Counted from the stretch's first letter, positions 23,534-48,926 are shown. The stretch: 64,000 nucleotides of DNA from Rhizobiaceae bacterium (GCA_023953835.1 JAMLJB010000002.1:90630-154629), one strand, 5' to 3'. Program-made: numbers and translations. Notes: generated from the sequence alone by a model not told the origin.

Positions 23534-24278
23534 GGGGTCGTTTGCGGGAGGGGGGCGAAATCCGACGCTAAGCCGAGAACGCGCTTACCGTAGTCCCTGA
23601 GTTCGCCATTCGGACCTACGTAGCGGTAGAGAGTGACGCGCTGCGCCATGGCGGCCTGGGCGAGACGCACCTGTGCTTTGGTCAGGGCGAATTTCCGGCC
23701 GCCCTTGCGGCCTCGCGCTCTGGCTGCGGCAAGGCCGGCCATGGTGGGCTCGCGGATCAGATCCCACTCAAAGTCGGCCAAAGTGGCGAAGATACCGAAC
23801 ACCATGCGGCCGGGATGCGGTTGTGGTGTCGATCTGAGCTCCCTTTCCGGTCAGCATACGCGGGCCGATCTTGCGGTCTGACAGATCCTTCACGGTGTTG
23901 ACCAGATGGGCGAGGGTCGCCGACGAGGCGAACGCGGTGCGCGACACCCTGAAATCCTTTGCCGAAATTGGCGGGGCCCTGGTCGATGCACTGGACGACG
24001 GCCAGCCGCTGGACGACGTCATCGCGACCGGATCGGGCTGATGAACGTCATCCTTGCGGAAGGGATCAATCTCGGCCTGCGCAAGATGGCTGACGCCACA
24101 AATACCCACACCTTCTGGGAGTTGATCAGCATAGGACGATGGCATGTCGAAGGCGAAGCCTACGATCGGGTGCTGGCCATGGTGGTCTCCCCTCGGATGG
24201 GAGCAGATCAATCGCACTGGAGACTATCGCTGGCCAAAGCCTTCGCGTAAGATCTCGCTCCCTCCCGCAAACGACCCC
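23534..24278. mobile_element. 745-bp non-autonomous mini derivative of the Tn5393-like transposon
   Basis: IRs at 23534-23572 and 24241-24278 resemble 45021-45058/48670-48707; interior is the tnpR 3' half plus three tnpA pieces. Confidence 0.9.
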
Positions 24279-26337: not shown

Positions 26338-27228
26338 CTAGAGTGTTTCCTTTCGCGCGGGCGTGAGGACGAAATCGTAGCGAAGCGCCGACATGTCCTG
26401 CTCGATCACGTTTCCCCGCGCCGTCCTGCCCGCTTCCTGCGGCGTCAGGCTCGCGATGAGCTCGTCCTTGACGCCGAACACGACATCGGAGTCGAGATAG
26501 GGGTCGCCGGAGAGGAAGACGTGCGTAACCAAAGTCTCAAAGCCGGGCGCCGCTATCATGAAGTGCACATGTGCCGGCCGGTACGGATGGCGGCCCTGCG
26601 CCTTCAGCATGTCCCCCACAGGTCCGTCATCGGGAATTGGGTAGAAGTTCGGCACGATGCTTCTGAACCAGAACCGGCCACCGCCATCCGTGCGAAAGCG
26701 GGCGCGGCCGGTGAGGCTTTCAAGCCCGTCCGCGTGCTGAATATCGTAATATCCGTCTCCGTCCGAATGCCACACATCGACAATCGCGCCAGCCAAAGCA
26801 TTGCCGCTGGGGTCACATACGCTGCCCTCGCACAGCATCGGCGCACCGTCGAGTCCTTCCGAAATGAACGCACCCAGCGGCTGCTCGGCTACGTTGGCGA
26901 CATAGAACGGTCCTAGAACGGTCGTCGCGGTCGCTTCGGATGCGCCGCGATGATTGATCGCATCGACCAGCATGGAGACGCCGAGCGTGTCCGAAAGCAG
27001 GATGAACTCCTGCCGCGTTTCGGAACACATGCCGCCGACGCGGGTCAGAAAATCGATGCCCTGCCGCCATTCTTCCTCGGTGGGTTCCACCTCCCTGACG
27101 AAGGCATGCAGATGGCGCACGAGCGCGTCGCTGATCGTCCGTGCCCGGTCGTTCGAAGCCCCGGCGACACGCCGCAGAACGGCCTCGGTGATGCTGGTTT
27201 CGTCTAAATTCCGCGATACTGGGTTCAT
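26338..27228 (-). CDS. Intradiol ring-cleavage dioxygenase, hydroxyquinol 1,2-dioxygenase-like
   Basis: EFILLSDTLG, TVLGPFY, DGYYDIQ, YPIPDDGPVG, RPAHVHF (Tyr/Tyr/His/His Fe ligands). Confidence 0.92.
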   Translation of the reverse strand: MNPVSRNLDETSITEAVLRRVAGASNDRARTISDALVRHLHAFVREVEPTEEEWRQGIDFLTRVGGMCSETRQEFILLSDTLGVSMLVDAINHRGASEATATTVLGPFYVANVAEQPLGAFISEGLDGAPMLCEGSVCDPSGNALAGAIVDVWHSDGDGYYDIQHADGLESLTGRARFRTDGGGRFWFRSIVPNFYPIPDDGPVGDMLKAQGRHPYRPAHVHFMIAAPGFETLVTHVFLSGDPYLDSDVVFGVKDELIASLTPQEAGRTARGNVIEQDMSALRYDFVLTPARKETL

Positions 27229-28148: not shown

Positions 28149-28188
28149 CTGCTTGTTCCTTGACGTCGAGCCAGGCCCGCGACGCGGA

Positions 28189-29346
28189 TCAGGCTGCGTT
28201 GGCCGTTTCCCGCGGGAGATCCTGCAGGCGAGGCAGGACTTCCTTCGCGAACAGCTTGAGGTGGCTCTTGGTCGCCGCGTTGGACAGGAAGCCGGCCTGA
28301 CCCATCGCGATGAGATGACCGAACCCTCCGACATGGAGATAGAACTTTTTGATCTGCTCGAAGACCTGATCGGGCGTGCCGCAGAACAGGATGCCGCGCT
28401 TCACCAGTTCATCGACGGTGAGAACGTCCGGCCGGTTGCCGGTCTTCCCCGTTTTCAGCGCCATGGCGTTGGCCTGCGGCGACACATAGCCGGGCGGGTT
28501 GCGGTAGTGCAGCGGCACCTTGTTGTGCTCGTAGTACCAGAGAAGCTGCTTGCCGCCCTCGCGGGCTGCTTCTTCCGTCTCGGCGACATGGACCAGCCCG
28601 GCATAGCCGATCTGTTCGATCGGGCAATGACCGGTGCGCCCTCCCTTCGCCCAGCCCTCGCGATAGGCCGTGAAGACGGCGGGCGTGTCGGCATATCCGG
28701 TGTTGAAGGTGCCGAGGCTGTAGCCTTTCTCGCCTATTGTTTTCGCGCTGCCGGGGCTGGTGGCCGAGACCCAGATCGGCGGATGCGGATCCTGATATGG
28801 CCGCGGCCAGATGTTGACGCAGCGATGATGAAAATAACGGCCCTCGAAGGTGAACGGACCGTCATGTGAGATCCATGCCTTCTTGATCAGGTCCAGCGCT
28901 TCCCACATACGCTCGTTCATGCGCACGGGGTTGCTGTTTGCCGGTGCCACCTCGTAGGGAACGCCCTTCACGAAGCCGCACTCGAGGCGCCCTTCAGAGT
29001 AGACGTCGATCATCGCCATTTCCTCCGCCACCCGGACCGGCTGGCGCCGGTTGGCGATCGGATTGCCGAGCATAAGGATTCGCGCCTTTGTTGTATTGCG
29101 GGCGAGCACCGCGGCCAGCAGCGGCGACGCCGGAGTCGTGCAGGTCGGCGTCTGGTGATGCTCGTTGATCATCAGGTCGAGGCCGTTCTCATCGGCACAA
29201 GCCCACTCGTCGATGCGCCACTTGAGCAGCTCGGCGCCTTTCTTCGGATCGTAATATGAATTCGGCAATGAGACACGCAGCGAATCGTAGGTGTCTTCCG
29301 CTGGGAGGTACGGGTACGCGCCCTCACTGAAATGATAGACTCTCAT
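28189..29346 (-). CDS. LLM (luciferase-like) flavin-dependent monooxygenase
   Basis: NEHHQT, RVAEEMAMIDVYSEGRLECGFVKG, FEGRYF, WPRPYQDPHPPIW. Confidence 0.92.
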   Translation of the reverse strand: MRVYHFSEGAYPYLPAEDTYDSLRVSLPNSYYDPKKGAELLKWRIDEWACADENGLDLMINEHHQTPTCTTPASPLLAAVLARNTTKARILMLGNPIANRRQPVRVAEEMAMIDVYSEGRLECGFVKGVPYEVAPANSNPVRMNERMWEALDLIKKAWISHDGPFTFEGRYFHHRCVNIWPRPYQDPHPPIWVSATSPGSAKTIGEKGYSLGTFNTGYADTPAVFTAYREGWAKGGRTGHCPIEQIGYAGLVHVAETEEAAREGGKQLLWYYEHNKVPLHYRNPPGYVSPQANAMALKTGKTGNRPDVLTVDELVKRGILFCGTPDQVFEQIKKFYLHVGGFGHLIAMGQAGFLSNAATKSHLKLFAKEVLPRLQDLPRETANAA

Positions 29347-30158
29347 GCCATTGCCTCCTGCTTGCCAGCGAATTCCACGATCTGATCTGCCAATCGGACG
29401 GCCTGCTCTTCATCCGGCAGATGGCCGGCTCCCGCGATCTCGACAATGCGGGCGCCGGGAATGCGATCCGAGAAGGCCCGCGCATAGTCGTCCGAGACCA
29501 GCTCGTCGGATGCCCCGCGCACGACGAGCGCGGGCGCCTCGATATGCCGGAGCCTGTCCTTCAGTTTCGGATTATGCATGTAAGGCTCCCAGGTAATCAG
29601 CGCGAGCGTCTCGCGCCGGCGCGCCACGGCCAGAAGCTCGCGGTCCTCGAACGCCTCGGGATTGAAGTCGTGCCGGGCCGGATCATGGTAGATCCTGCGG
29701 CGCAGCTCCGCTTCTGTGATCGCGAAGATATCAGGTATGTCGAGCCGGTCGACAGGCCCGACCTTGATCCCAACCGGCGAGACGAGAATCAAACGATCCA
29801 CCACCCCGATCAGCTTGCTGGCCAGTTCCGCGGCGATCCAGCCACCGACGGAGACGCCGACGAGGATGACATGGTTCGGCCGAAGCTTGCGCAGCAGTGC
29901 GATGTAGAGGTGGACGATGTCGTCGATGGAATCCATCTCCAAAGGCATGTCGGCGTCGCCGAAGCCCGGATGAACCGGCGCGATGACGCGGAAATGAGCG
30001 GCCAGTGCTTCGAGCGCATCCCGCGATGCCTCCAGGCCGTTGATGCCGTGCAGATAAAGGAGCGTCGGTCCTTCACCGCCCTGCAGATAATCCAGTTCGA
30101 TGTTTCCTATCGAGATCTTGCTGTGCTGCATTGAGGTCTTGTCTGTCACTGCCGTCAC
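29343..30158 (-). CDS. Alpha/beta hydrolase
   Basis: LYLHG, HPGFG, GVSVGG nucleophile elbow, AGHLP; alternative ATG at 30131. Confidence 0.88.
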   Translation of the reverse strand: MTAVTDKTSMQHSKISIGNIELDYLQGGEGPTLLYLHGINGLEASRDALEALAAHFRVIAPVHPGFGDADMPLEMDSIDDIVHLYIALLRKLRPNHVILVGVSVGGWIAAELASKLIGVVDRLILVSPVGIKVGPVDRLDIPDIFAITEAELRRRIYHDPARHDFNPEAFEDRELLAVARRRETLALITWEPYMHNPKLKDRLRHIEAPALVVRGASDELVSDDYARAFSDRIPGARIVEIAGAGHLPDEEQAVRLADQIVEFAGKQEAMA

Positions 30159-30209: not shown

Positions 30210-32621
30210 TCACTGCATGGCTTCCTGTGCTGCGCTCTCTCGATCTTGTGCCGAGGCCTGCCCATCACCAGCCTTTCTCGCCGGCCGCAGCCGCTTCAGC
30301 AAAAGCTCGTTGTGCTGCCCGAGCAGGGGAGACGGCTTCCATTTCGCGTTCCGCGATGTTTCGAAGTCGAAAGGCAGGCCGTGATATTTGTAGATGCCGA
30401 CCTCGGGCTGATCGACCTCGAAGATGAAGCCGGTCGCGTTCAGATGAGGGTCATTGAAGACATCCTCGCCGGAGCAGACCGGTGCGGCGGGAACCTTTGC
30501 CTGTTGCAAAGCCGTCGCCAGCTCATGCTTGTCGTGCTGGATGGTGTGTTTCTCCAGTTCCGCGCGCAGCGCGCTCCGGTGGAGGAGCCGTTCGGCCCTG
30601 GAGGCAAAACGCTGATCGTCCAGCAGCGATGTCGCGCCCAGCACCGTGACCAGAGAATGCCATTGCTTTTCGTCGAAGGCGGCGATGGCGATCCATTGGT
30701 TCTCGTCGCCCTGCGTGCGGAACGCGTCATGCGGCGCGGCATCGGCGATAGAATTGCCCTGCGGCAGCGGGTTGACGCCTTTGTCTATCGCCTCCAGCAG
30801 CCACTCGCCGTCATATTGCATCAGGCCCTCGCGCTGGGCGAGTTCGACCCGCTGTCCGCCGAAACCCTGTTCGCGCGCGAACAAGGCCGTCATCACGGCC
30901 GAAAGCCCGTTGAGCGCTCCGATCGGATCGGCATAGGCCGATCCGCTGCGGCAGGGAACGCCGTCGCCATAGCCGCTCAGCGCGGTGAAACCCGCCAGCG
31001 CTTCCATGGTCGGGCCGACGCCTGAGGCGCGCGCAAGCGGGCTGTCGCCTTTGCCGTAGGCCGGCATCTCCAGGAATATGATGTCGGGCCGCGCCTTCTG
31101 GAAATCGGCATAGCCGATGCCGAGCCGGTCAAGCACACCCACCCTGAAATTCGAGATCACCACATCGGCTTGCAGGCCGAGGATAATATCGCGCGCCGCG
31201 GGTGCCTTGAGGTCGAGGTCGAGACTGAGCTTGTTGTGGTTCTGGCTGTTGTACCAGACGTTGCGGTTGTACGGACGCTCTCCTTCGATGCCGTCGGGAT
31301 AGCGAATGCGCTCGCCGCCGGTTATGACACCGCGCCACGTATCCATTCGGTCCAGCGACTCGACCTTGATCACCTCGGCGCCGAGATGCGCCAGCATCCG
31401 TCCGAGCATCGGTCCGGCCCAGGCGGCGGTGAACTCCAGGACGCGCTTGCCCGCGAGAGGCGCACCGCCCATCACCGGCGCGGCATGTTCGACGGTCTTC
31501 GCCCCACGCACCGGCCATTCCGGCGCATCAATCGATCCGACCGCACCCGGAACATGACGGGGGGCAAGGCGCGGCGTCTTTTCCATGCGGAAGGGAGCAC
31601 CCAGCGCGATGCGCGGACCTTCGGCCGTCTGAACGGTCTGCCAATAGTTTCGCGAGGCCAGATGCGGGCAGGCATACACTTCCGTCGGCGAAAGCACCCG
31701 CGACGCGTTCGCGCCCGAACTCTCGATCTTTTCCACGACCTCGTCCACGCTCATCTGCTTGAAGCGCGGTGCGAGCCGCCGGTATGCCTCCTGCCAGTTG
31801 CGCATCAAGAGGTCGGGCGTCGCGAACAGCGGCTCGACCTTGAGGTCCTCGAAACCGAGAGCCGAACAGAATGCGCGCCAACGGCGCCCGCCGCAGAAAA
31901 TGACGAACCATCCGTCGTTCGCCGAAAATACGTCGCAGGCGCCGGGATACTCGCCGCGCGCCGGATAGGAACCGTTGTAGGAGAACTGTGCGACGAGGTT
32001 CTGCGACATCGAGGTCGAGGTCTGGTGGACATCGACCGTGACGATCTCTCCTTCGCCAGTACGCTTCCTCGCGATCAGCGCCGCCAGCGTGGCGGAATAG
32101 GCAGCCGCGCCCGTGCCGTAGTAGGCGCGGTAGCCGAAACCGTATAGAGGTTCAGCCGGAGGCCGGCCGGTCATATACATCAGCCCGCCCAGCGCCTGGT
32201 GGACCATCTCCGATCCGACCCAGTCCCGATACGGGCCGTCCTCGGAAAAATCGGGCGTCGCGCAGATAACGAGACGACGGTTCGCGGCGCGCAGCCGGCG
32301 CGCAAGCTGAGGATCGGTTGTCAAGACCACATCCGCATCCGAAGTCATCCGCTTGAGGCTTTCCATGCCCTCTGCGGTATCGATGTCCAAAGTCGCGGTG
32401 CGCTTGCCGAGGTTCAGGTGCCAGAACAGCAATGACTCTCCGCCATCCGCTCGAAACGGCGGCTGCCTGCGTATTGGCGACCCGGACGACGGCTCGACCA
32501 AAACGACGTCGGCGCCATAATCCGCGAACAGCCTCGCAGCGTACTGCCCAGCCACCGACGTGCTGAGGTCGACGACCCGAAGCCCCGCCAGAGCTGCCTG
32601 ATGTCCTGTGGGTTCCTCCAA
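30210..32621 (-). CDS. Tandem (two-domain) CaiB/BaiF class III CoA-transferase
   Basis: LAGLRVVDLSTSVAG and LAGKRVLEFTAAWAGP repeats; YADPIG in domain 2; TTG start at 32621 after GGAGG. Confidence 0.9.
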   Translation of the reverse strand: MEEPTGHQAALAGLRVVDLSTSVAGQYAARLFADYGADVVLVEPSSGSPIRRQPPFRADGGESLLFWHLNLGKRTATLDIDTAEGMESLKRMTSDADVVLTTDPQLARRLRAANRRLVICATPDFSEDGPYRDWVGSEMVHQALGGLMYMTGRPPAEPLYGFGYRAYYGTGAAAYSATLAALIARKRTGEGEIVTVDVHQTSTSMSQNLVAQFSYNGSYPARGEYPGACDVFSANDGWFVIFCGGRRWRAFCSALGFEDLKVEPLFATPDLLMRNWQEAYRRLAPRFKQMSVDEVVEKIESSGANASRVLSPTEVYACPHLASRNYWQTVQTAEGPRIALGAPFRMEKTPRLAPRHVPGAVGSIDAPEWPVRGAKTVEHAAPVMGGAPLAGKRVLEFTAAWAGPMLGRMLAHLGAEVIKVESLDRMDTWRGVITGGERIRYPDGIEGERPYNRNVWYNSQNHNKLSLDLDLKAPAARDIILGLQADVVISNFRVGVLDRLGIGYADFQKARPDIIFLEMPAYGKGDSPLARASGVGPTMEALAGFTALSGYGDGVPCRSGSAYADPIGALNGLSAVMTALFAREQGFGGQRVELAQREGLMQYDGEWLLEAIDKGVNPLPQGNSIADAAPHDAFRTQGDENQWIAIAAFDEKQWHSLVTVLGATSLLDDQRFASRAERLLHRSALRAELEKHTIQHDKHELATALQQAKVPAAPVCSGEDVFNDPHLNATGFIFEVDQPEVGIYKYHGLPFDFETSRNAKWKPSPLLGQHNELLLKRLRPARKAGDGQASAQDRESAAQEAMQ

Positions 32622-32678
32622 CGTACTCCTCCCAAGCGAGACGCTGTTAGCTAAGGCCCGCCAAGGCGAGCATCTAGA

Positions 32679-32688
32679 TAACATGTTA
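32679..32688. promoter_or_regulatory. Palindrome TAACATGTTA, candidate MarR-type operator
   Basis: Perfect 10-bp palindrome 58 bp upstream of the CoA-transferase; recurs at 33993 and 34825. Confidence 0.6.
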
Positions 32689-37758: not shown

Positions 37759-38174
37759 GGCTTCAAACCCCGGCTGTGGACCAATCCTTGTGACCTGCCC
37801 GAACCCTCCCCGGCGGCAGCCTCTGTCGACACATCGATGTGCCCATCTGACCTCTCACGGTCGATCGAAGAACCGCCCCATATATATGGACTTGCGTTCC
37901 TTGCAGGTCCTGGCATCGCTTTCCTCCTCCCAGAGTTAAGGTGCTCGCAGCCCTTACCGATAGACAGCCACACAATTTCCCAATACACGAGAAAAATGTC
38001 GCATTACCTTACTATTTTTTTCATTCGTTCCAATTTTCCTGTCGTGACGAAAAGGCACCGGCAGGGCGACTCGGGAAATCCAGTGCTCAAGACACTTCCC
38101 TCGCGTCTTCCATTGGAAAGTTGGGATCGACGTCCCGGACCGCCTTGTAGATCCGCTTCGGACAACGTTTGAGA

Positions 38175-39548
38175 ATGACCATGGACGCTCAACCCCCTGC
38201 CAATCCCGCGCAGGTAGACGGACTTCCATTCCCTCGCCGCGTGCGGGCCGTGGCATCGCTGCTGATTTGCATCGTCACACTGGTGACCGGCGGCGCGATG
38301 GCCACGGTCGGCCTGCCGACGATGGCGCGAGAATTCAACACGGAGCCCGCGGCAGCGATCTGGCTGGTGAACGGGTTTCAGATCGCCCTCGTTATCTGTC
38401 TGCTGCCGGCGGCAGCGGCCGGAGTTCGCATCGGGCAGAGGGCGCTGTTTCAGATCGGCCTTATTGTGTTCCTCATCGCCGCGGGTTGCTCCGCCCTGTC
38501 GAGCTCGATCGGCTGGCTGACCGCCAGCCGCATCCTTCAAGGTATGGGATCGGCTGCCGTTCTGAGCGTCACCGCAGCGCTGGTGCGTCATACCTATCCG
38601 AGCAAGAACATCAGCGCGGCTGTTGCGATTAATGCCTTCACCGTCGCGCTCTCGTCGGGCATCGGGCCGATCGCCGGCTCGTTCATTCTCACCTGGGCAT
38701 CCTGGCCCTGGTTGTTCGCCGCCAGCATTCCTCCGGGCCTGGTCGGCCTCGCCTGCTCGATATCGCTGCCCGACAACACGCCTCGCAAGGCGCCCTTTGA
38801 TTCGCGCGGCGCGATTTTGGCTGGCTTGACCTTCGGGTTGTTCGTGATCGGAATGGAACAATTGGGAATGCGGCCGCAGCTTGCCACCGGAACCCTGGTG
38901 ATCTCGCTGGCGTCCGGCATATTGCTGCTGCGTCATACGAAAAACCGGTCTCATCCGATTCTGCCTCTCGACCTGTTGACCATGCCGCGACTTGCCTTCG
39001 CGTCCTCGTCGTCGGTGCTTTGCTTCGCGGCCAACACGATGGTGCTGACCGCCCTGCCGTTCCACCTGATCGACGACCTCAGCGTTTCCCAGCTGGATGC
39101 CGGCTTCCTGCTTTCGATCTGGCCGTTCGCGCTCGCACCCGCCGCAGTAGCGACCGGCTGGCTTTTGACCAGGATGCGGGAAGAGGTGCTGTGCCTTATC
39201 GGCTCGTCCGCAATGGCCATCGGTATGTTCATCATGGTGTTCGCGCCGGTCGGCGCGGAGCTGCCCGGAATTATCTTTGGGGCGGCGTTTGCGGGGCTGG
39301 GGTTCGCATTGTTCCAGTCTCCCAACAACAAGATGATGATCCTGTCGGTGCCGCTTGAGCGCAGCGGAGGTGCGAGCGTGATCCAGGCCATGTCTCGGGA
39401 ATTTGGAATCGCTATCGGTGCCGGCATGCTGGGCTTGATCTTCAATCTCGCCACCGGAGCATCTTCGTATGGCATTTTGATCGGGGCGCTGCTTGCGACG
39501 ATGACCTCGGCTTTGAGTGCATTCAGGCTGCGCGCGCGCGACCGATAG
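38175..39548 (+). CDS. MFS transporter (DHA2/EmrB-like, 14-TM type)
   Basis: ATVGLPTM, SRILQGMG, GPIAG, FQSPNN. Confidence 0.88.
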   Translation: MTMDAQPPANPAQVDGLPFPRRVRAVASLLICIVTLVTGGAMATVGLPTMAREFNTEPAAAIWLVNGFQIALVICLLPAAAAGVRIGQRALFQIGLIVFLIAAGCSALSSSIGWLTASRILQGMGSAAVLSVTAALVRHTYPSKNISAAVAINAFTVALSSGIGPIAGSFILTWASWPWLFAASIPPGLVGLACSISLPDNTPRKAPFDSRGAILAGLTFGLFVIGMEQLGMRPQLATGTLVISLASGILLLRHTKNRSHPILPLDLLTMPRLAFASSSSVLCFAANTMVLTALPFHLIDDLSVSQLDAGFLLSIWPFALAPAAVATGWLLTRMREEVLCLIGSSAMAIGMFIMVFAPVGAELPGIIFGAAFAGLGFALFQSPNNKMMILSVPLERSGGASVIQAMSREFGIAIGAGMLGLIFNLATGASSYGILIGALLATMTSALSAFRLRARDR

Positions 39549-39706: not shown

Positions 39707-40282
39707 ATGTCTGACGAAAGAATTGACGGGGCAACCAAACATGCTGCGACGGCGCATACAAGCGCGAGAAACGTTCCCCTGTCTCTGACCATGTCGCTGC
39801 TGCGCGCGCGCGAAGCCATCATGCGTCATTTTCGCCCTGCCTTCCGCCATTTCGGCATAACCGAACAGCAATGGCGCATCCTGCGGGCGCTCGTGATCGT
39901 CGACACGATCGAGATCGACGAGCTGGCGGAAGTGACGTTCCTGCTGCGGCCGTCGCTCTCGCGTATCCTCAGGGACCTGCACGATGGAGGGCTGATCATC
40001 CGCCAGACATCCGACGTCGACCTGAGGCGCGGTCTCGTCTCCCTCAGCCCGGCCGGGCGCAGGCTGATCGCCGAGGCGGGAGCCTATGCCGACGTGCTCT
40101 ATGGCGAGGTGGTGGCGCGATACGGGCCGGACAAAACCGCGGCGCTGCGGGAGATGCTTCGCGAACTCGAAGAACGGCTCGAAGAGCCGCTCAACGCCAT
40201 CTCCGCAAGCGAATTCTCGGATCGGACCGCAAAGGCCAAGCGCCCCCGAGGCAGGCCGAGAAACGATGCAGCTGAGGAATAG
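39707..40282 (+). CDS. hpaR: MarR regulator, HpaR (homoprotocatechuate-pathway repressor)-like
   Basis: LLRAREAIMRHFRP...GITEQQWRILRAL...PSLSRIL. Confidence 0.8.
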   Translation: MSDERIDGATKHAATAHTSARNVPLSLTMSLLRAREAIMRHFRPAFRHFGITEQQWRILRALVIVDTIEIDELAEVTFLLRPSLSRILRDLHDGGLIIRQTSDVDLRRGLVSLSPAGRRLIAEAGAYADVLYGEVVARYGPDKTAALREMLRELEERLEEPLNAISASEFSDRTAKAKRPRGRPRNDAAEE

Positions 40283-40291
40283 GCGCATTGG

Positions 40292-41017
40292 CTACAGCCC
40301 GTGAAAACCGGCGCGGGCCTTGTAATATTCCCAAGCCCTGGCCATCGCGACATCGCCCATATGCAAGTCTGCCGTCAGCCTGACCTCTTCGGGCGTGAGG
40401 TAGGTCGGGGTGCCATGCCGCAGCGCTTCGAGAAGAATCCTGGCATTGTCCGAGAGATAAATCGAAATAAAGCACACCCTCGACAGGCTTGCGGCAGCGC
40501 AAACCGAACCGTGCCCGCGCAGGAGGACCGAGGACCCCGCCCCCAGCGCCTTGGCCAGCGAGTGGCCCTTGGGAAGGTCGTCGACCAGCATCCTTGTATC
40601 GCCGAACTCGTCCCGGCTATCCCATTTGGGAACTTCGTTCCCGATGACGGAGGCAATGTGGAGGACCGGCTTCAGCGGAATATTCAGGACCGTGAACGGA
40701 ATGACCGGGCGCGCATGATGGTGGGCGACGGCGTTCACTTCGGGCCGGGCCATGTAGATGGCGCCGTGAATCGCTCGCTCGGAATAAAGACCGCGATTCG
40801 GCGCGGTGACGGGGTCGCCCTCAAGCGTAAATTCCACGATGTCTTCCGCGCAGACCAGCTCCGGACTGCGCGCGCGGGACAGGAAATAGCGCCCGGGATC
40901 GGTCGGGTGCCTGACGCTGATATGGCCGAAATCGTCGATCACGCCTTCATGCGCGAGCACACGGTTGGCGATGACCAGTTCTCGGATGACATGCTGCACA
41001 GCATCAGACCAGGACAT
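40292..41017 (-). CDS. Class II aldolase/adducin fold, similar to 3-hydroxy-2-methylpyridine-4,5-dicarboxylate decarboxylase subfamily
   Basis: FGHISVRHP.DP, ERAIHGAIY..RP.V, HHH, LRGHG, YLTPEE, RAWEY. Confidence 0.82.
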   Translation of the reverse strand: MSWSDAVQHVIRELVIANRVLAHEGVIDDFGHISVRHPTDPGRYFLSRARSPELVCAEDIVEFTLEGDPVTAPNRGLYSERAIHGAIYMARPEVNAVAHHHARPVIPFTVLNIPLKPVLHIASVIGNEVPKWDSRDEFGDTRMLVDDLPKGHSLAKALGAGSSVLLRGHGSVCAAASLSRVCFISIYLSDNARILLEALRHGTPTYLTPEEVRLTADLHMGDVAMARAWEYYKARAGFHGL

Positions 41018-41603
41018 GCGATTTCTCCCTTGCCGAGACCGTGCTCATGCGCGCGAACTGCACGACTTGCCGTCCGACCGTCTCCAGCTGAAACTTGGCG
41101 GAAAGGTCCAGGCAATTGCCGTGATCGTCGAACAATTTGGTTGATGTGTTAAGCATCGCTCCGAGCGGTGTCGGCCAGCCGCGCAGAGCATGTGCGATCG
41201 ACCTGATTGCCGCCAGCGTCTGGCCGGCCGCCTGCCAGCCGCCCGCGCAGGCGATGCATCCGACCGCGATCCCGTCGAAATAAGGGCGCGGATCGTTTCG
41301 CAGGTCTTCCGTATAGTCCAGCGCATTCTTGACCAGCCCGGAGATCGAGCCGTGATAGGCCGGCGAAGAGACTATAATGCCGTTGCAAAGGCGGAACGCA
41401 TCGATCAGCCGTTTTGCTTCGTCGGCGCGCTCGCTCGCCTCTGGCAAGTACATTGGCAATACGAGCTGGGGGCCGCTCAGCATCATCACTTTCGCACCTT
41501 CCTCCCGCGCAGCCGCGAGGCTGACGGCGAGCGCGCGTTCAGACGACGACCCTGCGCGCGGGGTCCCGCCAATGCCAAGAATTAGAGGTTGCTTCTCAGT
41601 CAC
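41004..41603 (-). CDS. NADPH-dependent FMN reductase (SsuE-like)
   Basis: GIGGTPRAGSSS, SPAYHGSISGLVKNALD; GTG start at 41603. Confidence 0.9.
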   Translation of the reverse strand: MTEKQPLILGIGGTPRAGSSSERALAVSLAAAREEGAKVMMLSGPQLVLPMYLPEASERADEAKRLIDAFRLCNGIIVSSPAYHGSISGLVKNALDYTEDLRNDPRPYFDGIAVGCIACAGGWQAAGQTLAAIRSIAHALRGWPTPLGAMLNTSTKLFDDHGNCLDLSAKFQLETVGRQVVQFARMSTVSAREKSHVLV

Positions 41604-41941
41604 GGCTGTCCCTCGATGCGACCTTGACCCGCGGATTTGCCGGGCAGCGGCACACCGGCGCCGTCGGACACCTCGCACAACGACACCGAGTATTCGCCGA
41701 TTAGATATTTGCTCAGTTCCCGAGCCCGCTCGGCCCGCGCAGGTGAATTTTCCCAGGCGGCCACCGCTTCGGCATCGCGCCACAGCGTGACCGTATAGAT
41801 GGACTCGCTGTCCTTGATGTCCTTGGCGAACCAGTTGCCGATCATGCCGTCCGCCGCCGGGATGGGATGTAGGTGGAACTGGCGCTCCAGGTCACCTACC
41901 ATGCCCGGACGCGCCCGGCCCCAGGTGATGCGCATCAGCAT
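41600..41941 (-). CDS. Antibiotic-biosynthesis-monooxygenase (ABM)-like dimeric alpha/beta barrel protein
   Basis: 113 aa; RITWGRARPG, VTLWRDAEAVAAW. Confidence 0.65.
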   Translation of the reverse strand: MLMRITWGRARPGMVGDLERQFHLHPIPAADGMIGNWFAKDIKDSESIYTVTLWRDAEAVAAWENSPARAERARELSKYLIGEYSVSLCEVSDGAGVPLPGKSAGQGRIEGQP

Positions 41942-42007
41942 AATACGATTACCTCCTGCCCGCGCGCCCCGCAGGTCGCCGCATCGCGCCCAAAGCGGAT
42001 ATCGAAA

Positions 42008-43423
42008 TTAGCCGGCATGCTGGAAACCCGCGCGCTTCATCGTCCGCACCGCCTGGGAATAGGGTGACGGGGCGATCTTCGCCCTGATCTGCGTCTGCCG
42101 GTGCCGCTCGACATGCGGCTTGCGGGAGCCGCCGTCGGGTTCACCCCAGGTGAGCACCACATCCGTCCCCGGCTCGGCATGCGACGGCCAGACGGCGGCC
42201 AGCGAAAGGAATTCCGCCTCGTTGGCCGTGTAGCCGCAGAAGCTGGACATGCCGACAAGTTCCCCGCTTGTGCTGCGCACCTCGTCGCACTGCTGGAACG
42301 CATAGGCGGAAACGGGAAGCTCCAGTTGCTTGAACGGAAGGCCCGGTTCGAGGATCGACGCCTGGATTCTGGCGACGTCCTCCTTGTTCCAGACCAGCGT
42401 GACCTTGGTCCTGTGAGGTTCGCGCGCCCGCCGTTCCAGCGCCGCGCGGCCGATGAAATCGTGGTCGAACTTCAAGACCCGCTCGACACCCAGATCCCAC
42501 GGCGTGACGTAGTAGTCCTCGATGTTCGGGGACCGGAAGCTGCCGCCAAGCTGTGAGGCGCTTTCCCATGAGGTCGCCGCCGGAAGCCACTCGCGGAACG
42601 CGCGAAGACGCTCATCCGTATAGACGGCAGGCAGCGGATAGGGCCACCATCCGGCCTCGCCATTGGTGCTGAAATAGGCTCGCGCCCCGCCTTGCCGCAG
42701 GCCATATTTGCGGCCCGCTTCCACGATTGCGGCCCGCACCTTCGGCCCGCCCGCATAAGGACCCGACAGTTCGACGCCCTTGTGGCCGGCCATGCCGTGC
42801 CGCAAGGCGAGCATATCGACGCCAGCGATCCTGACCTTCGCAAACCGGAAGAACGGTATCTCCGGGGCCGGACCCTCGACCACCTCCTGAAAGATCTTTT
42901 CGGCATGCGGGCCGTCCATTCCGAACCGGAAATTCGTGCGCCCATGGGGGTTCTGGGACGTCTGATAGTCTTTGACGAAAGTGACGTCATAACCGCCGGT
43001 TTCGGCATGGAACTGCACCCAGTTCTGCAAATGCGACCCGCTGATAAGCTCAAAACTCTCCTTGTCGAGATATTGCAGCACGCACTCGCCGATGACCTGT
43101 CCATTGTGATTGCAGGCCAGGTATTGCTTCGCGCGACCCGGAACGAAGCCCTCGAAACTATTGATCCCGAGATAGTTCAGCAGCCGGAACGCGTCAGGCC
43201 CTTTCAAGAACAGTTCGGGCATGTGGTGGGACTGGTCGAACAGAACCGCGGTTTCGCGCCAGGCGCGCTGCTCGTCGAGCCAGTTCGTGAACTGCGGCGG
43301 CACCGGTGTCAGGGCCGCTCTATCGCGGGCATGCGGCCCAAGCGTATCATTGTAGAAATAGTTAACAAGATCGGGGATCGAATCGATAAGTTCCTGAACC
43401 GATCGTTCCTTAGCGCAAGTCAT
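42008..43423 (-). CDS. THF-dependent aryl O-demethylase-like aminomethyltransferase (LigM/DesA family)
   Basis: W..EQ.AWR...VLFDQSHHM, AKQY, LRHGMAG, RAY, PLPAVYT, GGSF.S.NIEDYY, FDHDFIGR.AL; ATG at 43423. Confidence 0.88.
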   Translation of the reverse strand: MTCAKERSVQELIDSIPDLVNYFYNDTLGPHARDRAALTPVPPQFTNWLDEQRAWRETAVLFDQSHHMPELFLKGPDAFRLLNYLGINSFEGFVPGRAKQYLACNHNGQVIGECVLQYLDKESFELISGSHLQNWVQFHAETGGYDVTFVKDYQTSQNPHGRTNFRFGMDGPHAEKIFQEVVEGPAPEIPFFRFAKVRIAGVDMLALRHGMAGHKGVELSGPYAGGPKVRAAIVEAGRKYGLRQGGARAYFSTNGEAGWWPYPLPAVYTDERLRAFREWLPAATSWESASQLGGSFRSPNIEDYYVTPWDLGVERVLKFDHDFIGRAALERRAREPHRTKVTLVWNKEDVARIQASILEPGLPFKQLELPVSAYAFQQCDEVRSTSGELVGMSSFCGYTANEAEFLSLAAVWPSHAEPGTDVVLTWGEPDGGSRKPHVERHRQTQIRAKIAPSPYSQAVRTMKRAGFQHAG

Positions 43424-43451
43424 TCTTCCTCCCAGTAACTTCCCCGGTGTT

Positions 43452-44078
43452 CTACGCCTGCGCGGCAACCGCGTAGGCTGAACCGCCCTGCAGCCACTCG
43501 CGACCGCGGCGATAGAGATCCTCCACGATCGGCCCCGTCAGGCCCGGCATGTCTGTCTTCACCTTGAAGCCAAGGCCGGACTGCAAATAGGCAAGATGCC
43601 GATAGCCCACCGGGAAACTCTCGAGTCTCGACCTTTCAATTGCCGGGACCTTGGCAGGATCTACGGGATCGAGACGATCCTTCTCGTAGATCGGCTGCCG
43701 CAGAACCACACCCCATTTCCCGCTGCGCTTCTCGAGAAAATCGAAGAAGCGTCCGGTACACACCACATCGCATTCGACGCCATCCACGGCAGCACGCTGG
43801 TTGATCGTCATCTTTGTCTGGGCAACCGCGCGCGGTGCGGCCAGATCGACGGTGATACCGCCGAGAAAATGCAGGATGCTGATGCCGTTATCAAAGCCTT
43901 CACGGCTAACCCTGATGAACTCGTCTGCGGTTCCCTGAAACCAGGTCGCCATCATCACGCCGTCGTCGTGCCAGACAGTTCGGAACCGCTCCCAGTCGCC
44001 GGCGTCCCGCCATAACGCCCAGTTCTCCAGCAAATCGCGGATGAGTTGGCGATCCTTCTCTATTTCAGAAGATAACAT
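43452..44078 (-). CDS. SnoaL/NTF2-like protein
   Basis: IRDLLENWALWRDAGDW, HFLGG, GRFFD, YEKDR; ATG at 44078 preferred. Confidence 0.8.
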   Translation of the reverse strand: MLSSEIEKDRQLIRDLLENWALWRDAGDWERFRTVWHDDGVMMATWFQGTADEFIRVSREGFDNGISILHFLGGITVDLAAPRAVAQTKMTINQRAAVDGVECDVVCTGRFFDFLEKRSGKWGVVLRQPIYEKDRLDPVDPAKVPAIERSRLESFPVGYRHLAYLQSGLGFKVKTDMPGLTGPIVEDLYRRGREWLQGGSAYAVAAQA

Positions 44079-44339
44079 ATCAGAAAATCTCTTGTAACTT
44101 GATACCAACTATTTGATCACTATGCTTTCGATATGTGCATAGCAATAAGGCTACCTGACCAAATTATTCGCATCGTGTCAAATGACAAACGCAGTTCCAA
44201 CACAAATCATGCAGCAAGAACATTCTCGCGATCGGCTTTTCCCCGATGGACCTGACCGATCATTGAACCGGTCTTTCCGAGCGGAGTGTACTGGCCCTCT
44301 GACCATCAGACAGGCTCGCGTCTGGTTCGAAAATCTTGA

Positions 44340-44870
44340 TTGCCGGCGACCAAATTGCGAAAATATGCGAGTGGCAGCCCATCGTTCAGGCTTGAACGAT
44401 TCAACGCATCCAGTCGATCGGAGTATTTCATGATTTCTTGGCGCCGGCAGAACATTGGACGTCGAATGAACGAGTCGGTACGCCGCTTTGACGGGAGAAT
44501 CATGCACTTGCTGAGAGAGCGAGGCTACAACTATCTCTCGCTCGCGCAACTCAGCGTAACCCGAAATCTCGACGATGACGGGACGCGGTTGACGGAGCTT
44601 GCTCGCCGCGCCGGCATGACAAAGCAATCGATGGGCGAACTCGTCAAGCAGGTAGAGGACTTGCAACTCATCGAACGGCGGCGCGATCCCCTCGACGCTC
44701 GCGCGCGCCTTATTTGCTTCACACCGTCCGGCTTCGACTGGCTTGAGGCGTTCCATCAAAGCCTCATGATCGCGGAGGCTGAAATGAGCGCCGAAATCGG
44801 CCCCGAAGCCGTCAGCTTCATCAATCATGCGCTAGGAAAATATTCCGACGACTGGTTCGATCCCCATTGA
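44340..44870 (+). CDS. MarR family regulator, divergent from the snoaL-demethylase operon
   Basis: GTRLTELARRAGMTKQSMGELV, DPLDARAR; alternative ATG at 44430 with GGAG RBS. Confidence 0.88.
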   Translation: MPATKLRKYASGSPSFRLERFNASSRSEYFMISWRRQNIGRRMNESVRRFDGRIMHLLRERGYNYLSLAQLSVTRNLDDDGTRLTELARRAGMTKQSMGELVKQVEDLQLIERRRDPLDARARLICFTPSGFDWLEAFHQSLMIAEAEMSAEIGPEAVSFINHALGKYSDDWFDPH

Positions 44871-45048
44871 CGGCGGCTGCGTAAGCGCCGCCCACCGTCG
44901 CGCTCGCGTGCCACAAGATAGTAGACGACCGGTCTAATAGCAGATACGTTGCGACCCCTATCAGCCGGCGCGGTCGATGCCTGCGCGTCAAACAAGGACC
45001 AGGGAGACAGCAATGAAGGCGGGGTCGTTTGCGGGAGGGGGCGAAATC

Positions 45049-45663
45049 CTACGCTAAGCCGAGAACGCGCTTACCGTAGTCCCTGAGTTCGCCCTTCGGG
45101 CCTACGTAACGGTAGAGAGTGACGCGCTCGATCCCGAGTTCCTTGCACAGGTGGGAAACGGAAGTATCGCGCTGGGCCATGGCTGCCTGGGCGAGGCGCA
45201 CCTGTGCTTTGGTCAGGGCGAATTTCCGACCACCTTTGCGGCCTCGCGCTCTGGCAGCGGCAAGACCGGCCATGGTGCGTTCGCGGATCAGGTCACGCTC
45301 GAACTCGGCCAGGGTTGCGAAGATGCCGAACACCATACGGCCGGATGCGGTCGTGGTGTCGATCTGAGCGCCCTTTCCGGTCAGCACACGCAGGCCGACG
45401 TTTCGATCCGACAGATCCTTCACCGTGTTGACCAGGTGGGCAAGCGACCGCCCGAGGCGGTCGAGCTTCCAGATCACCAGCACATCGCCGTCGCGCAAGG
45501 ATTTCAGGCAGGCGGCCAGTCCGGGCCGGTCGTCGCGGCCGCCGGAAGCGCGATCCTCGTAGATATTGTCTTGGTCGACGCCGGCGGCGCGCAGGGCGTC
45601 GTGCTGCAGGTCGAGGGACTGTGAGCCATCGGCTTTGGAGACTCGGGCATATCCGATCAGCAT
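45049..45663 (-). CDS. tnpR: Serine resolvase
   Basis: MLIGYARVS, KLDRLGRS, FATLAEFER, C-terminal HTH. Confidence 0.96.
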   Translation of the reverse strand: MLIGYARVSKADGSQSLDLQHDALRAAGVDQDNIYEDRASGGRDDRPGLAACLKSLRDGDVLVIWKLDRLGRSLAHLVNTVKDLSDRNVGLRVLTGKGAQIDTTTASGRMVFGIFATLAEFERDLIRERTMAGLAAARARGRKGGRKFALTKAQVRLAQAAMAQRDTSVSHLCKELGIERVTLYRYVGPKGELRDYGKRVLGLA

Positions 45664-45788
45664 GTTTCTTAAACGCTGGTTTGAGGCGGCGCGCTGGCCA
45701 CGAATGATTTGTTCGCTGGAAATGTATCTCAACCAGCTTCATAAACAAAGCGTCTTGAACATCATCGGATTTTGAAAAAGGAACATCG
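45664..45788. other. Presumed res site and divergent promoters
   Basis: AT-rich 125-bp gap between divergent tnpR and tnpA, the standard res position; subsites not resolved. Confidence 0.6.
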
Positions 45789-48674
45789 ATGCCGCGTCGC
45801 GTCACTCTAACCGATCGGCAGAAGGACGCGCTGTTGCGCCTGCCGACCTCGCAGGCGGATTTGCTCAAGCACTATACACTGAGCGATGAAGACCTTGAAC
45901 ACATCAGGCTGCGCCGACGCGCTCACAACAGGTTCGGCTTCGCACTGCAATTGTGCGTCCTGCGCTATCCCGGCCGGGTGCTGGCTCCCGGCGAGCTGAT
46001 ACCGGAGGAGGTCGTCGAGTTCATCGGAGCGCAACTCGGTCTGAAAGCCGACGATCTCGTTGACTATGCCGCCCGTGAGGAGACGCGGCACGAGCATCTT
46101 TCCGAGCTGCGGGCGCTCTACGGATTCCGCACCTTCTCCGGACGTGGCGCGCGCGAACTGAAGGAATGGCTGTTCCGGGAAGCCGAGATGGCGGTGTCGA
46201 ACGAAGATATCGCCCGCCGCTTCGTGGCGGAGTGCCGACGCACCCGCACGGTTCTTCCTGCAACATCGACGATCGAACGGCTTTGCGCCACGGCCCTGGT
46301 CGATGCCGAGCGGCGGATCGAGACGAGGATCGCCAGTCGGCTGTCCGCGCCCAGCCGGGAACAGTTGCTGGCATTGCTCGAGGAGACGGCCGGCGACCGG
46401 GTGACCCGCTTCGTGTGGTTGCGGCAGTTCGAGCCGGGCTCGAATTCTTCGTCGGCCAACCGGCTGCTCGACCGGCTCGAATACCTGCAACGTGTTGATC
46501 TTCCCGAAAATCTGCTGGCCGGTGTTCCTGCTCATCGGGTGACACGCCTGCGCAGGCAGGGCGAGCGGTATTATGCCGACGGCATGCGCGATCTTCCGGA
46601 GGACAGGCGTCTTGCGATTCTGGCTGTTTGCGCGTCGGAATGGCAAGCGATGCTCGCCGACGCCATGGTTGAAACCCATGACCGGATTGTCGGCAGGCTC
46701 TACCGTGCTTCGGAGCGCATTTGCCAGGCGAAGGTCGCCGACGAAGCGAGCGCGGTACGCGACACCCTGAAATCCTTCGCCGAAATTGGCGGGGCCCTGG
46801 TCGATGCACAGGACGACGGCCAGCCGCTGGACGACGTCATTGCGCGCGGATCGGGTTGGGACGGTTTCAAGACTCTTGTTGCAATGGCAACCAGGCTGAC
46901 CGTCACCATGGCGGACGATCCGCTCAATCATGTGCTTGACGGCTATCATCGTTTCCGCCGGTACGCTCCTCGCATGTTGCGCCTGCTCGATCTGCGGGCT
47001 GCGCCAGTCGCGCTGCCGCTTCTGGAAGCGGTGACGGCCCTGCGCACCGGTTTGAATGATGCCGCGCGTATTGGCTTCCTTCGGCCCAGCTCGAAATGGC
47101 ATCGCCATCTTCGGGCGCAGGCGGCCGGTGATACTCGCCTCTGGGAGATTGCGGTTCTGTTCCATCTGCGCGATGCGTTCCGCTCCGGAGATATCTGGCT
47201 GGTCAGGTCTCGGCGTTATGGCGATCTGAAACAGGCACTCGTTCCGGCGCAAGCTGTCGCGGAAGGCGGCCGTCTCGCTGTGCCATTACGGCCGGAGGAA
47301 TGGCTGGCAGATCGGCAAGCACGCCTCGATATCCGGCTGCGCGAGCTTGGCCGTGCGGCACGCTCGGGAACGATTCCCGGCGGGTCGATCGAAAACGGCG
47401 TTCTGCATATCGAGAAGCTCGAAGCCGCCGCGCCGACCGGCGCCGAAGATCTGGTGCTCGATCTCTACAAACATGTGCCGCCCACGCGCATCACCGATCT
47501 CTTGTTGGAAGTGGATGCAGCGACCGGCTTTACCGAAGCGTTCACGCATCTGCGCACTGGAGCGCCGTGCGCCGACCGGATCGGGCTGATGAACGTCATC
47601 CTTGCGGAAGGGATCAACCTCGGCCTGCGCAAGATGGCTGACGCTACAAACACCCACACCTTCTGGGAGCTGATCCGCATTGGACGATGGCATGTCGAAG
47701 GCGAAGCCTACGACCGGGCGCTGGCCATGGTGGTCGAGGCGCAGGCGGCGTTACCCATGGCCCGGTTCTGGGGCATGGGCACCTCGGCTTCGAGCGACGG
47801 CCAGTTCTTCGCCGCGACAGAGCAAGGCGAAGCCATGAATCTGGTCAACGCGAAATACGGCAATACCCCGGGTCTGAAAGCCTATAGCCACGTCTCGGAC
47901 CAATATGCGCCGTTCGCGACCCAGGTGATTCCTGCGACGGCGAGCGAAGCTCCCTACATCCTCGACGGCCTGCTCATGAACGATGCCGGCCGCCATATTC
48001 GCGAGCAGTTCGCCGATACAGGCGGCTTCACCGATCACGTCTTTGCCGCATGCGCCATTCTCGGCTACCGATTCGCGCCGCGAATCCGCGATCTGCCGTC
48101 CAAGCGGCTCTATGCGTTCAATCCATCGACCGCCCCGGCCCACTTGCGGGTCATGATCGGCGGCAAAATCAATCAGGCCATGATCGAGCGCAATTGGCCA
48201 GATATCCTGCGCATCGCCGCTACCATCGCGGCCGGAAGCATCGCGCCCAGCCAGATTCTACGAAAGCTCGCCTCCTATCCGCGACAAAACGAACTGGCCA
48301 CAGCTCTACGGGAAGTCGGCCGCGTCGAGCGGACCCTGTTCATGATCGACTGGATTCTGGATGCCGATCTGCAACGCCGCGCCCAGATCGGGCTCAACAA
48401 GGGTGAAGCGCATCACGCGCTGAAACGTGCCATCAGCTTCCACCGACGCGGCGAAATCCGCGACCGTTCCGCCGAAGGCCAGCATTACCGGATCGCTGGC
48501 ATGAACCTGCTCGCCGCCATCATCATCTTCTGGAACACCATGAAGCTGGGCGAAGTCGTCGCCAGCCAGAAGCGCGATGGAAAGCTGCTATCGCCCGATC
48601 TCCTGGCCCATGTCTCGCCGCTGGGATGGGAGCACATTAACCTCACCGGAGAATATCGCTGGCCAAAGCCTTAG
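45789..48674 (+). CDS. tnpA: Tn3-family DDE transposase (961 aa)
   Basis: MPRRVTLTDRQKDALL, SSDGQFF, DTGGFTDH, GLNKGE. Confidence 0.97.
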   Translation: MPRRVTLTDRQKDALLRLPTSQADLLKHYTLSDEDLEHIRLRRRAHNRFGFALQLCVLRYPGRVLAPGELIPEEVVEFIGAQLGLKADDLVDYAAREETRHEHLSELRALYGFRTFSGRGARELKEWLFREAEMAVSNEDIARRFVAECRRTRTVLPATSTIERLCATALVDAERRIETRIASRLSAPSREQLLALLEETAGDRVTRFVWLRQFEPGSNSSSANRLLDRLEYLQRVDLPENLLAGVPAHRVTRLRRQGERYYADGMRDLPEDRRLAILAVCASEWQAMLADAMVETHDRIVGRLYRASERICQAKVADEASAVRDTLKSFAEIGGALVDAQDDGQPLDDVIARGSGWDGFKTLVAMATRLTVTMADDPLNHVLDGYHRFRRYAPRMLRLLDLRAAPVALPLLEAVTALRTGLNDAARIGFLRPSSKWHRHLRAQAAGDTRLWEIAVLFHLRDAFRSGDIWLVRSRRYGDLKQALVPAQAVAEGGRLAVPLRPEEWLADRQARLDIRLRELGRAARSGTIPGGSIENGVLHIEKLEAAAPTGAEDLVLDLYKHVPPTRITDLLLEVDAATGFTEAFTHLRTGAPCADRIGLMNVILAEGINLGLRKMADATNTHTFWELIRIGRWHVEGEAYDRALAMVVEAQAALPMARFWGMGTSASSDGQFFAATEQGEAMNLVNAKYGNTPGLKAYSHVSDQYAPFATQVIPATASEAPYILDGLLMNDAGRHIREQFADTGGFTDHVFAACAILGYRFAPRIRDLPSKRLYAFNPSTAPAHLRVMIGGKINQAMIERNWPDILRIAATIAAGSIAPSQILRKLASYPRQNELATALREVGRVERTLFMIDWILDADLQRRAQIGLNKGEAHHALKRAISFHRRGEIRDRSAEGQHYRIAGMNLLAAIIIFWNTMKLGEVVASQKRDGKLLSPDLLAHVSPLGWEHINLTGEYRWPKP

Positions 48675-48707
48675 CGTAGGATTCCGCCCCCTCCCGCAAA
48701 CGACCCC

Positions 48708-48926
48708 GAGAAGGGTGAGATCGATCATACGTCAAGCAATCGCAACGTCGACGTTTCGCGTATCGCCCAGGCCAATCAGGGCAGGGCGGTTGTCGATGAT
48801 CGCCACGAGCGTGGTCGTGACCGAGCGAACGAACGGGAAGAAGAAAAGCAGCCGGAGCGGCAGATTCCGTCCCGCGTGGTTTTGACCCCTCCGAAAGATC
48901 GCGATCGCGGCGATCGCAGCCGGTAG
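48708..48926 (+). pseudogene. C-terminal tail of an interrupted gene, relaxase-like charged end
   Basis: Frame is open from the IR edge for 72 codons, ending TPPKDRDRGDRSR*. Confidence 0.4.

Follow-up and report, generated by a model that had tools for sequence, protein, structure and literature searches.

A 64,000-nucleotide stretch of a Rhizobiaceae genome (GCA_023953835.1, JAMLJB010000002.1:90630-154629; hereafter the window) carries at 40292-44870 five minus-strand genes opposite a divergently transcribed MarR regulator gene. In order of transcription, they encode a SnoaL_4-domain protein (SnoaL4), a predicted tetrahydrofolate (THF)-dependent aryl O-demethylase, an ABM-domain protein, an FMN reductase and a class II aldolase-fold protein (Table 1). 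The reading that we put forward is that these genes form one polycistronic, MarR-controlled operon and one half of a two-array catabolic island, recently assembled and horizontally acquired, which would channel a methoxy-aromatic acid other than vanillate into hydroxyquinol-type ring cleavage. Judged from sequence and taken as a whole, this reading has in our estimate an even chance of being right.

Support comes from a second array, at 24.5-30.2 kb, in which each module of the operon finds its usual partner: the demethylase a gene similar to methylenetetrahydrofolate reductase (MTHFR) and the gene of the formyl-THF deformylase PurU, SnoaL4 a dioxygenase of the hydroxyquinol type, and the FMN reductase with the ABM protein a luciferase-like monooxygenase and an α/β hydrolase. 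Operon and array are thus joined by three independent links, and the two may be co-regulated.

Operon architecture and control region

Open reading frame (ORF) calling and Pfam searches recovered all five co-oriented, closely spaced genes and the MarR gene opposite them, just as an earlier reading of the DNA (the sequence-only reading) had described. A second MarR gene, of the HpaR type, went unmentioned there; its stop codon and that of the operon are just 9 nt apart. Start codons were set by called public proteins (P0001, 471 aa; P0121, 208 aa; P0241, 199 aa). All four gene borders look polycistronic, with ribosome-binding sites or overlaps. Between SnoaL4 and the demethylase, TAG is followed by a 28-nt spacer with the ribosome-binding site GGGAGG and by ATG; between the demethylase and the ABM gene, TAA is followed by a 66-nt spacer with AGGAGG and by ATG. 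The ABM and FMN reductase genes share a stop/start overlap (GTGA), and the FMN reductase and aldolase-fold genes overlap by 14 nt, with an AGGGAG.

The proposed control by MarR gains from comparison with other genomes: the pairing of a MarR gene with a demethylase gene is kept in three other loci, rhizobial plasmids among them (L092, L093 and L094), where the divergent MarR genes adjoining the demethylases are 61-66% identical to that of the window. A promoter and terminator scan and a palindrome search of the 351-bp control region returned nothing above chance; what resembled promoters matched weakly, and no palindrome stood out as an operator.

Table 1. Features of the operon, the second array and the island boundaries (window coordinates)
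Feature	Position	Strand	Basis and remarks
MarR regulator, divergent	44340..44870	+	Pfam MarR_2, MarR; TTG at 44340 opens the ORF, likelier start ATG 44430 or 44466
Control region between MarR gene and operon, 351 bp	44079..44429	.	GC 47%
SnoaL_4 protein, AGDC1/PPP2-family NTF2 fold, candidate cofactor-free hydroxybenzoate decarboxylase, 208 aa	43452..44078	-	Pfam, PDB matches
Predicted THF-dependent aryl O-demethylase, Dmt06/Dmt50 clade, 471 aa	42008..43423	-	Pfam GCV_T, tree
ABM-domain protein, 113 aa	41600..41941	-	Pfam ABM
NAD(P)H-dependent FMN reductase, 199 aa	41004..41603	-	Pfam FMN_red
Class II aldolase-fold protein (241 aa) that may decarboxylate an ortho-hydroxy aromatic carboxylate	40292..41017	-	Pfam Aldolase_II, PDB 2Z7B
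Second MarR regulator, HpaR type, convergent with operon	39707..40282	+	NCBIfam TIGR02337 HpaR, 133 bits (cut-off 121)
DHA2-type MFS transporter, upstream of HpaR-like gene	38169..39548	+	Pfam MFS_1; NCBIfam EmrB subfamily, below cut-off
Fused CoA-transferase, 824 aa, two family III CoA-transferase domains	30210-32684	-	Catabolic array
α/β hydrolase	29343-30158	-	Pfam Abhydrolase; 45% identical to L108 hydrolase
Luciferase-like FMN monooxygenase	28189-29346	-	Pfam Bac_luciferase; 61% identical to L108 monooxygenase
Hydroxyquinol 1,2-dioxygenase-type intradiol dioxygenase	26338..27228	-	PDB 8R2X E 5e-82, 1TMX 2e-76; catechol 1,2-dioxygenase 3e-37
Formyl-THF deformylase PurU	25345-26190	-	TIGR00655, 310 bits (cut-off 286)
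MTHFR-like gene, just downstream of PurU	24497-25288 (ORF 24443-25348)	-	MTHFR genes next to Dmt06 (L095) and a rhizobial demethylase (L093) are 34-35% identical over 265 aa
Tn3-family element, right boundary	45020..48708	.	tnpR 45049-45732, tnpA 45789-48674, 39-bp terminal inverted repeats
Internally deleted copy of Tn3-family element, direct orientation, left boundary	23534..24278	.	Direct repeats D1-D6 at 85-96% identity, terminal repeat I2

Clade membership of the demethylase

The demethylase matches Pfam GCV_T (E 3e-37), and its motifs DQSHHM and RAY align to H60 and Y247 of LigM, as is characteristic of GcvT-fold, THF-dependent aryl O-demethylases. The departures from LigM that the sequence-only reading had quoted all reappeared in the alignment: GRAP is replaced by SGSH and AYPSN by AYFST, and the N-terminal Tyr-x-Tyr segment (YVY) has given way to a longer PH..R.R segment. 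With the curated NCBIfam equivalog models, the protein scored 467 bits for LigM (NF047885; cut-off 580) and 528 bits for DesA (NF047633; cut-off 800), while control genes from R. johnstonii pRL9 and N. pentaromativorans pLA3 reached 785 and 850 bits, respectively.

In a maximum-likelihood tree, LigM/DesA and the dicamba demethylase Dmt06 fell into separate groups, each with 100/100 support. The Dmt06 group, in a tree built without Dmt50 and Dmt sequences, took in Dmt06, the window protein, the genes from rhizobial plasmids and every one of the 36 further matches sampled; within it, the window protein shares a sub-branch with P0002 and P0004. Seven alignment columns part this clade from LigM/DesA (in LigM numbering G121S, R122G, R151N, Q167D, S259Y, Y282W and A340V), with R122 replaced by Gly in 39 of the 40 clade members, the window protein included, and the N-terminal segment is rebuilt throughout the clade with an insertion of four to six residues. 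In LigM, R122 and the N-terminal tyrosines contact vanillate. Since the altered pocket is common to the 40 sampled members, it is real, yet it is a signature of the clade and not of the window gene; the remodelling that the sequence-only reading had singled out therefore stands as a distinction from LigM and DesA but is nothing special to this operon. By these sequence comparisons, the demethylase, the sole gene of the LigM/DesA/Dmt family in the host genome, is neither LigM nor DesA and belongs to the Dmt06 dicamba-demethylase clade.

Dmt06 is THF-dependent, acts on dicamba and is reported to be inactive on vanillate and syringate, and its clade is described as common in soil bacteria and as having no known natural substrate (PMC9404685). 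It is of metagenomic origin, with an identical protein reported in Actinomadura, while Dmt50 comes from Rhizorhabdus dicambivorans Ndbn-20 (PMC9404685; bioRxiv 10.1101/537639). Via the primer sequences in PMC9404685, a Dmt06-type gene, nearly identical to that of Dmt06, was found in Nonomuraea composti, and its N- and C-termini agree with the expression primers. With the Dmt06-type protein (L095:173-1594), the window demethylase shares 62% identity, so that 38% of residues differ. Like Dmt06 and Dmt50, it belongs to a clade of GcvT-fold, THF-dependent aryl methyltransferases with the same substitutions relative to LigM/DesA and has MTHFR and PurU genes nearby; unlike them, it sits in an operon with candidate decarboxylases, 16-18 kb separate it from its MTHFR and PurU genes, which are thus not adjacent, and activity on dicamba could be ascribed to it only by analogy. 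With LigM and DesA of Sphingobium lignivorans SYK-6, it shares the fold, the cofactor, the DQ(S/T)HHM motif and the catalytic Tyr247 of RAY (PDB 5TL4, E 7e-121), but identity to the LigM equivalog and to other genes of their clade is about 47-50% (tblastn), and LigM (vanillate and 3-O-methylgallate) and DesA (syringate) form a separate clade. A substrate other than vanillate or syringate, as first proposed from the sequence, thus agrees with the inactivity of Dmt06 on both; nothing points to the heteroaromatic compound that had been proposed alongside.

Two candidate decarboxylases

The label SnoaL, given to the first gene by the sequence-only reading, had to be dropped. Among solved structures, the strong matches of SnoaL4 were PPP2 (7JMR, E 9e-30) and AGDC1 (6W54, E 4.5e-29) only, and a family-profile search gave 1e-36 and 1e-34, respectively. 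On these matches the gene is homologous to those of AGDC1 (Blastobotrys adeninivorans) and PPP2 (Madurella mycetomatis), two fungal enzymes that decarboxylate gallate and protocatechuate without a cofactor, and it encodes a candidate decarboxylase. Homology is full-length, with 35% identity to PPP2. With residue numbering and catalytic roles as established for AGDC1 (PMC7862292), the counterparts of W35, D40, W61, H86 and Y150 are invariant across 18 bacterial family members, and the His86-Asp40 dyad, the Trp35/Trp61 clamp and Y150 are accordingly kept.

The bacterial SnoaL4 family is very large and unusually well conserved, its members being 65-84% identical from Proteobacteria to Solirubrobacterales and Acidobacteriota. 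No characterised bacterial member of the AGDC1/PPP2 kind was found in the literature searched, and a search that combined SnoaL/NTF2 with hydroxyquinol gave no paper. Among 80 SnoaL4 loci from genomes (L009-L088), a hydroxyquinol-type intradiol dioxygenase gene lies within 5 kb in 12 and an extradiol dioxygenase gene in 14. In two further loci (L089 and L091), a hydroxyquinol-type dioxygenase gene follows directly downstream of SnoaL4, and the dioxygenase of the window is 63% identical to that of L089. The closest homologues of SnoaL4 occur in clusters of the form IclR / SnoaL4 / Fe-ADH / dioxygenase; a shikimate dehydrogenase gene and an AP_endonuc_2 (dehydroshikimate-dehydratase-like) gene are also found near them. 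In three loci of other genomes, a demethylase gene adjoins SnoaL4 or lies within about 2 kb of it, that of L092 belonging to the Dmt06 clade and those of L022 and L025 to the LigM clade. The latter two come from metagenome-assembled genomes of Solirubrobacterales / Actinomycetes and form an independent pairing of a demethylase with an AGDC1-type gene in another phylum.

The last gene of the operon is, as had been noticed from the sequence, closer to the pyridine-dicarboxylate decarboxylase of Mesorhizobium than to sugar-phosphate aldolases: it matched Mlr6791 (PDB 2Z7B) with E 1.8e-45 at 38% identity, compared with about 1e-8 to 1e-6 for fuculose-phosphate aldolases. In class II aldolases, an H-x-H motif and a later His are the metal ligands. 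The protein keeps both as aligned with Mlr6791, the pattern expected of an aromatic decarboxylase of this fold. Its second-best NCBIfam match is PhtC, a 3,4-dihydroxyphthalate decarboxylase (NF053537), at 64 bits with a cut-off of 200. The closest homologues of the gene adjoin aromatic FAD monooxygenases or flavin reductases. Mlr6791 (3-hydroxy-2-methylpyridine-4,5-dicarboxylate 4-decarboxylase) and PhtC share with it the class II aldolase/adducin fold and the His pattern; unlike either, the window gene has no vitamin-B6 or phthalate pathway genes around it and is translationally coupled to the FMN reductase gene. Decarboxylation, for which the sequence-only reading had proposed one enzyme, is hence plausible from homology with two candidates.

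The ABM-FMN reductase pair and its probable, detached monooxygenase partner

The ABM protein is 57-59% identical to the product of a small gene ahead of the FMN reductase gene in two other loci (L107 and L108). Of the 14 closest FMN reductase loci (at least 64% identity), 10 have a luciferase-like monooxygenase gene within 6 kb and eight an α/β hydrolase gene; in several, an ABM gene is adjacent. The monooxygenase gene is in the same array as the reductase gene in L108 and in an adjacent divergent array in L107. Such recurrence of reductase and oxygenase is the mark of a two-component, FMN-dependent, luciferase-like monooxygenase; in the window, the oxygenase gene is 11 kb off but within the same island, and the FMN reductase is likely, from these neighbourhoods, to be its reductase partner. 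The ABM and FMN reductase genes had been counted towards one five-gene pathway; they belong instead with the monooxygenase and hydrolase genes elsewhere in the island.

In L108 (5662-9776), the module stands in one row, namely ABM, FMN reductase, a 4,5-dihydroxyphthalate decarboxylase homologue (PDB 9JP7, E 2e-78), α/β hydrolase and luciferase-like monooxygenase, and the window carries this module in two separate parts and with another decarboxylase. The slot after ABM-FMN reductase is thus filled in L108 and in the window by decarboxylases of hydroxylated aromatic dicarboxylates that are not homologous to each other, which suggests that decarboxylation belongs to the module. A 358-aa ORF at 27258-28334 was considered as the counterpart of the 347-aa decarboxylase of L108 and was rejected, the two having no homology.

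The second array and the Tn3-bracketed island

Genes of the Dmt06 clade adjoin MTHFR and/or PurU genes in L093 and L095, and both kinds are present in the window. The MTHFR-like ORF had no Pfam match at E 1e-4 and may represent a divergent, demethylase-coupled type of MTHFR. The same-strand genes downstream of the operon also include an ABC importer and a dienelactone hydrolase.

Operon and second array lie on a 470-kb megaplasmid, within a 20.7-kb island (24279-45019) that has a Tn3-family element on either side, the two being related. The arrangement of the two copies could be a compound-transposon-like structure. The island is of uniform GC content, which gives no signal of mosaicism.

Distribution of the gene set

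The five-gene set was not found near the closest demethylase matches, near 80 SnoaL4, five aldolase-fold or 80 FMN reductase loci, or in plasmids. Different genes surround the closest homologues of the demethylase (70-71% identity), and the other operon genes occur in none of the 80 SnoaL4 loci, save two with LigM-clade demethylases. The MarR-SnoaL4-demethylase order recurs once, on a 2.9-kb contig (L092) whose demethylase is 77% identical to that of the window. A metagenome scan with a single protein query gave distant matches only. No gene of the LigM/DesA family was found in 20 relatives of the host, which, with the Tn3-family copies at both ends of the island, speaks for acquisition. In a sample of 400 other genomes of the class, just one contained a gene of the Dmt06 clade. 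Since the set was found nowhere else searched, it is not a conserved pathway unit, contrary to the initial view of the five genes; the arrangement is a one-off mosaic and not a new kind of system.

Proposed route

In the route that we propose, a methoxylated hydroxy-aromatic mono- or dicarboxylate, for which an ortho-methoxybenzoate type is favoured by analogy with dicamba, would be taken up, and the Dmt06/Dmt50-clade enzyme would move its methyl group to THF, the MTHFR-like gene and PurU (24.5-26.2 kb) recycling the C1 unit. The AGDC1/PPP2-type enzyme, the class II aldolase-type decarboxylase or both would then strip the carboxyl group or groups non-oxidatively. Where needed, the ring could be hydroxylated by the FMN reductase (with the ABM protein) and the luciferase-like monooxygenase at 28 kb, and an ester may be opened by the α/β hydrolase encoded next to it. 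Last, the hydroxyquinol 1,2-dioxygenase at 26.3 kb would cleave the polyphenol so formed, which would be hydroxyquinol or a similar compound.

Several points weigh against this reading. The potassium ligand E88 of AGDC1, whose site primes the His-Asp dyad, is an invariant Leu in the bacterial family (HFL in place of HRE), and the gallate-contacting Y146 (Val in PPP2) is an invariant Arg. With these two replacements, which set the bacterial SnoaL4 apart from the fungal enzymes, its chemistry or substrate may differ from that of AGDC1. A ring-cleavage gene of either type lies within 5 kb in only 20 of the 80 SnoaL4 loci. The island contains no maleylacetate reductase gene, the nearest homologue on this replicon lying at a distance of about 270 kb (C2:403190-404239), and the reading does not account for the roles of the ABM protein, the 358-aa ORF, the dienelactone hydrolase and the CoA-transferase fusion. 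As the set was found nowhere else searched, the case for all five genes acting together is, moreover, their predicted co-transcription in one genome.

A more specific version of the route, which would be undescribed, is tentative and rather unlikely to hold in full. Here a natural ortho-methoxylated aromatic mono- or dicarboxylate would be demethylated by the Dmt06/Dmt50-type enzyme, and the first bacterial AGDC1-type decarboxylation, together with a class II aldolase-type one, would yield a hydroxyquinol-type substrate. Candidate starting compounds would be 6-methoxysalicylate, 2,6-dimethoxybenzoate, 3-methoxyphthalate or hemipinate-type acids. If true, it would show what the 'dicamba demethylase' clade does in nature. 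Cofactor-free aromatic decarboxylases of the AGDC1/PPP2 kind are, in addition, wanted for muconate and pyrogallol production.

Competing explanations

Transposition or recombination might instead have placed pieces of three or four unrelated modules (MarR-SnoaL4-demethylase, ABM-FMN reductase and a lone decarboxylase) behind one promoter, where they would be co-transcribed and yet serve different substrates and make up no single pathway. That the homologues of each gene are found in different neighbourhoods, that none of the 80 FMN reductase loci, like the SnoaL4 loci with their two LigM-type exceptions, had the other operon genes, and that Tn3-family copies stand at both ends of the island would all fit such an accident. 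The ABM, FMN reductase and aldolase-fold genes are, however, coupled by translational overlaps, a decarboxylase gene also fills the slot after ABM-FMN reductase in L108, and the usual partners of all three modules lie within one 20-kb island of uniform GC content; with this evidence on the other side, we consider accidental juxtaposition somewhat unlikely.

A classical lignin-monomer route, in which vanillate, syringate or 3-O-methylgallate would be demethylated to protocatechuate or gallate and then decarboxylated in the manner of AGDC1 to catechol or pyrogallol, would draw on the sole characterised relatives of SnoaL4, which act on just these two acids (PMC7862292), on the proximity of SnoaL4 to true LigM-clade genes in L022 and L025, and on the NCBIfam DesA and LigM models being the best matches of the demethylase. 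It is nevertheless distinctly improbable, as the demethylase falls below both curated cut-offs and into the separate, fully supported Dmt06 clade with Gly in place of LigM R122, Dmt06 itself is inactive on vanillate and syringate (PMC9404685), and the linked dioxygenase is of the hydroxyquinol and not the catechol type. Less credible still is the degradation of a methoxylated pyridine-type dicarboxylate, with the last gene acting like the vitamin-B6-pathway decarboxylase. Its resemblance to Mlr6791 speaks for this, but no other pyridine-pathway enzyme was seen among the island genes, the ring-cleavage enzyme is a benzenoid hydroxyquinol dioxygenase, the fold family includes the benzenoid decarboxylase PhtC, and the closest homologues of the gene stand beside aromatic FAD monooxygenases or flavin reductases.

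Related clusters on rhizobial plasmids

The closest parallels to the proposed route from a methoxy-aromatic acid to hydroxyquinol-type cleavage are two plasmid clusters. On pRlvC of R. leguminosarum (L093), the genes for demethylase, MTHFR, ABC transporter, PurU, maleylacetate reductase and dioxygenase follow one another, with divergent MarR and FAD monooxygenase genes; pM0123d of Mesorhizobium amorphae (L094) has a similar set without MTHFR and PurU. Demethylase and MarR regulator are each about 61% identical to those of the window, and both clusters would likewise combine demethylation with hydroxyquinol-type cleavage, with C1 recycling on pRlvC. They differ from the window in having an FAD monooxygenase gene and a maleylacetate reductase gene within the cluster and in lacking SnoaL4, ABM, FMN reductase and aldolase-like genes. 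Together with the operon, they put the Dmt06 clade in the company of hydroxyquinol cleavage and candidate decarboxylases and so limit where its native substrates need be sought. What the two clusters seem to encode is a self-contained and apparently unstudied path that would lead via hydroxyquinol from a methoxy-aromatic compound to 3-oxoadipate.

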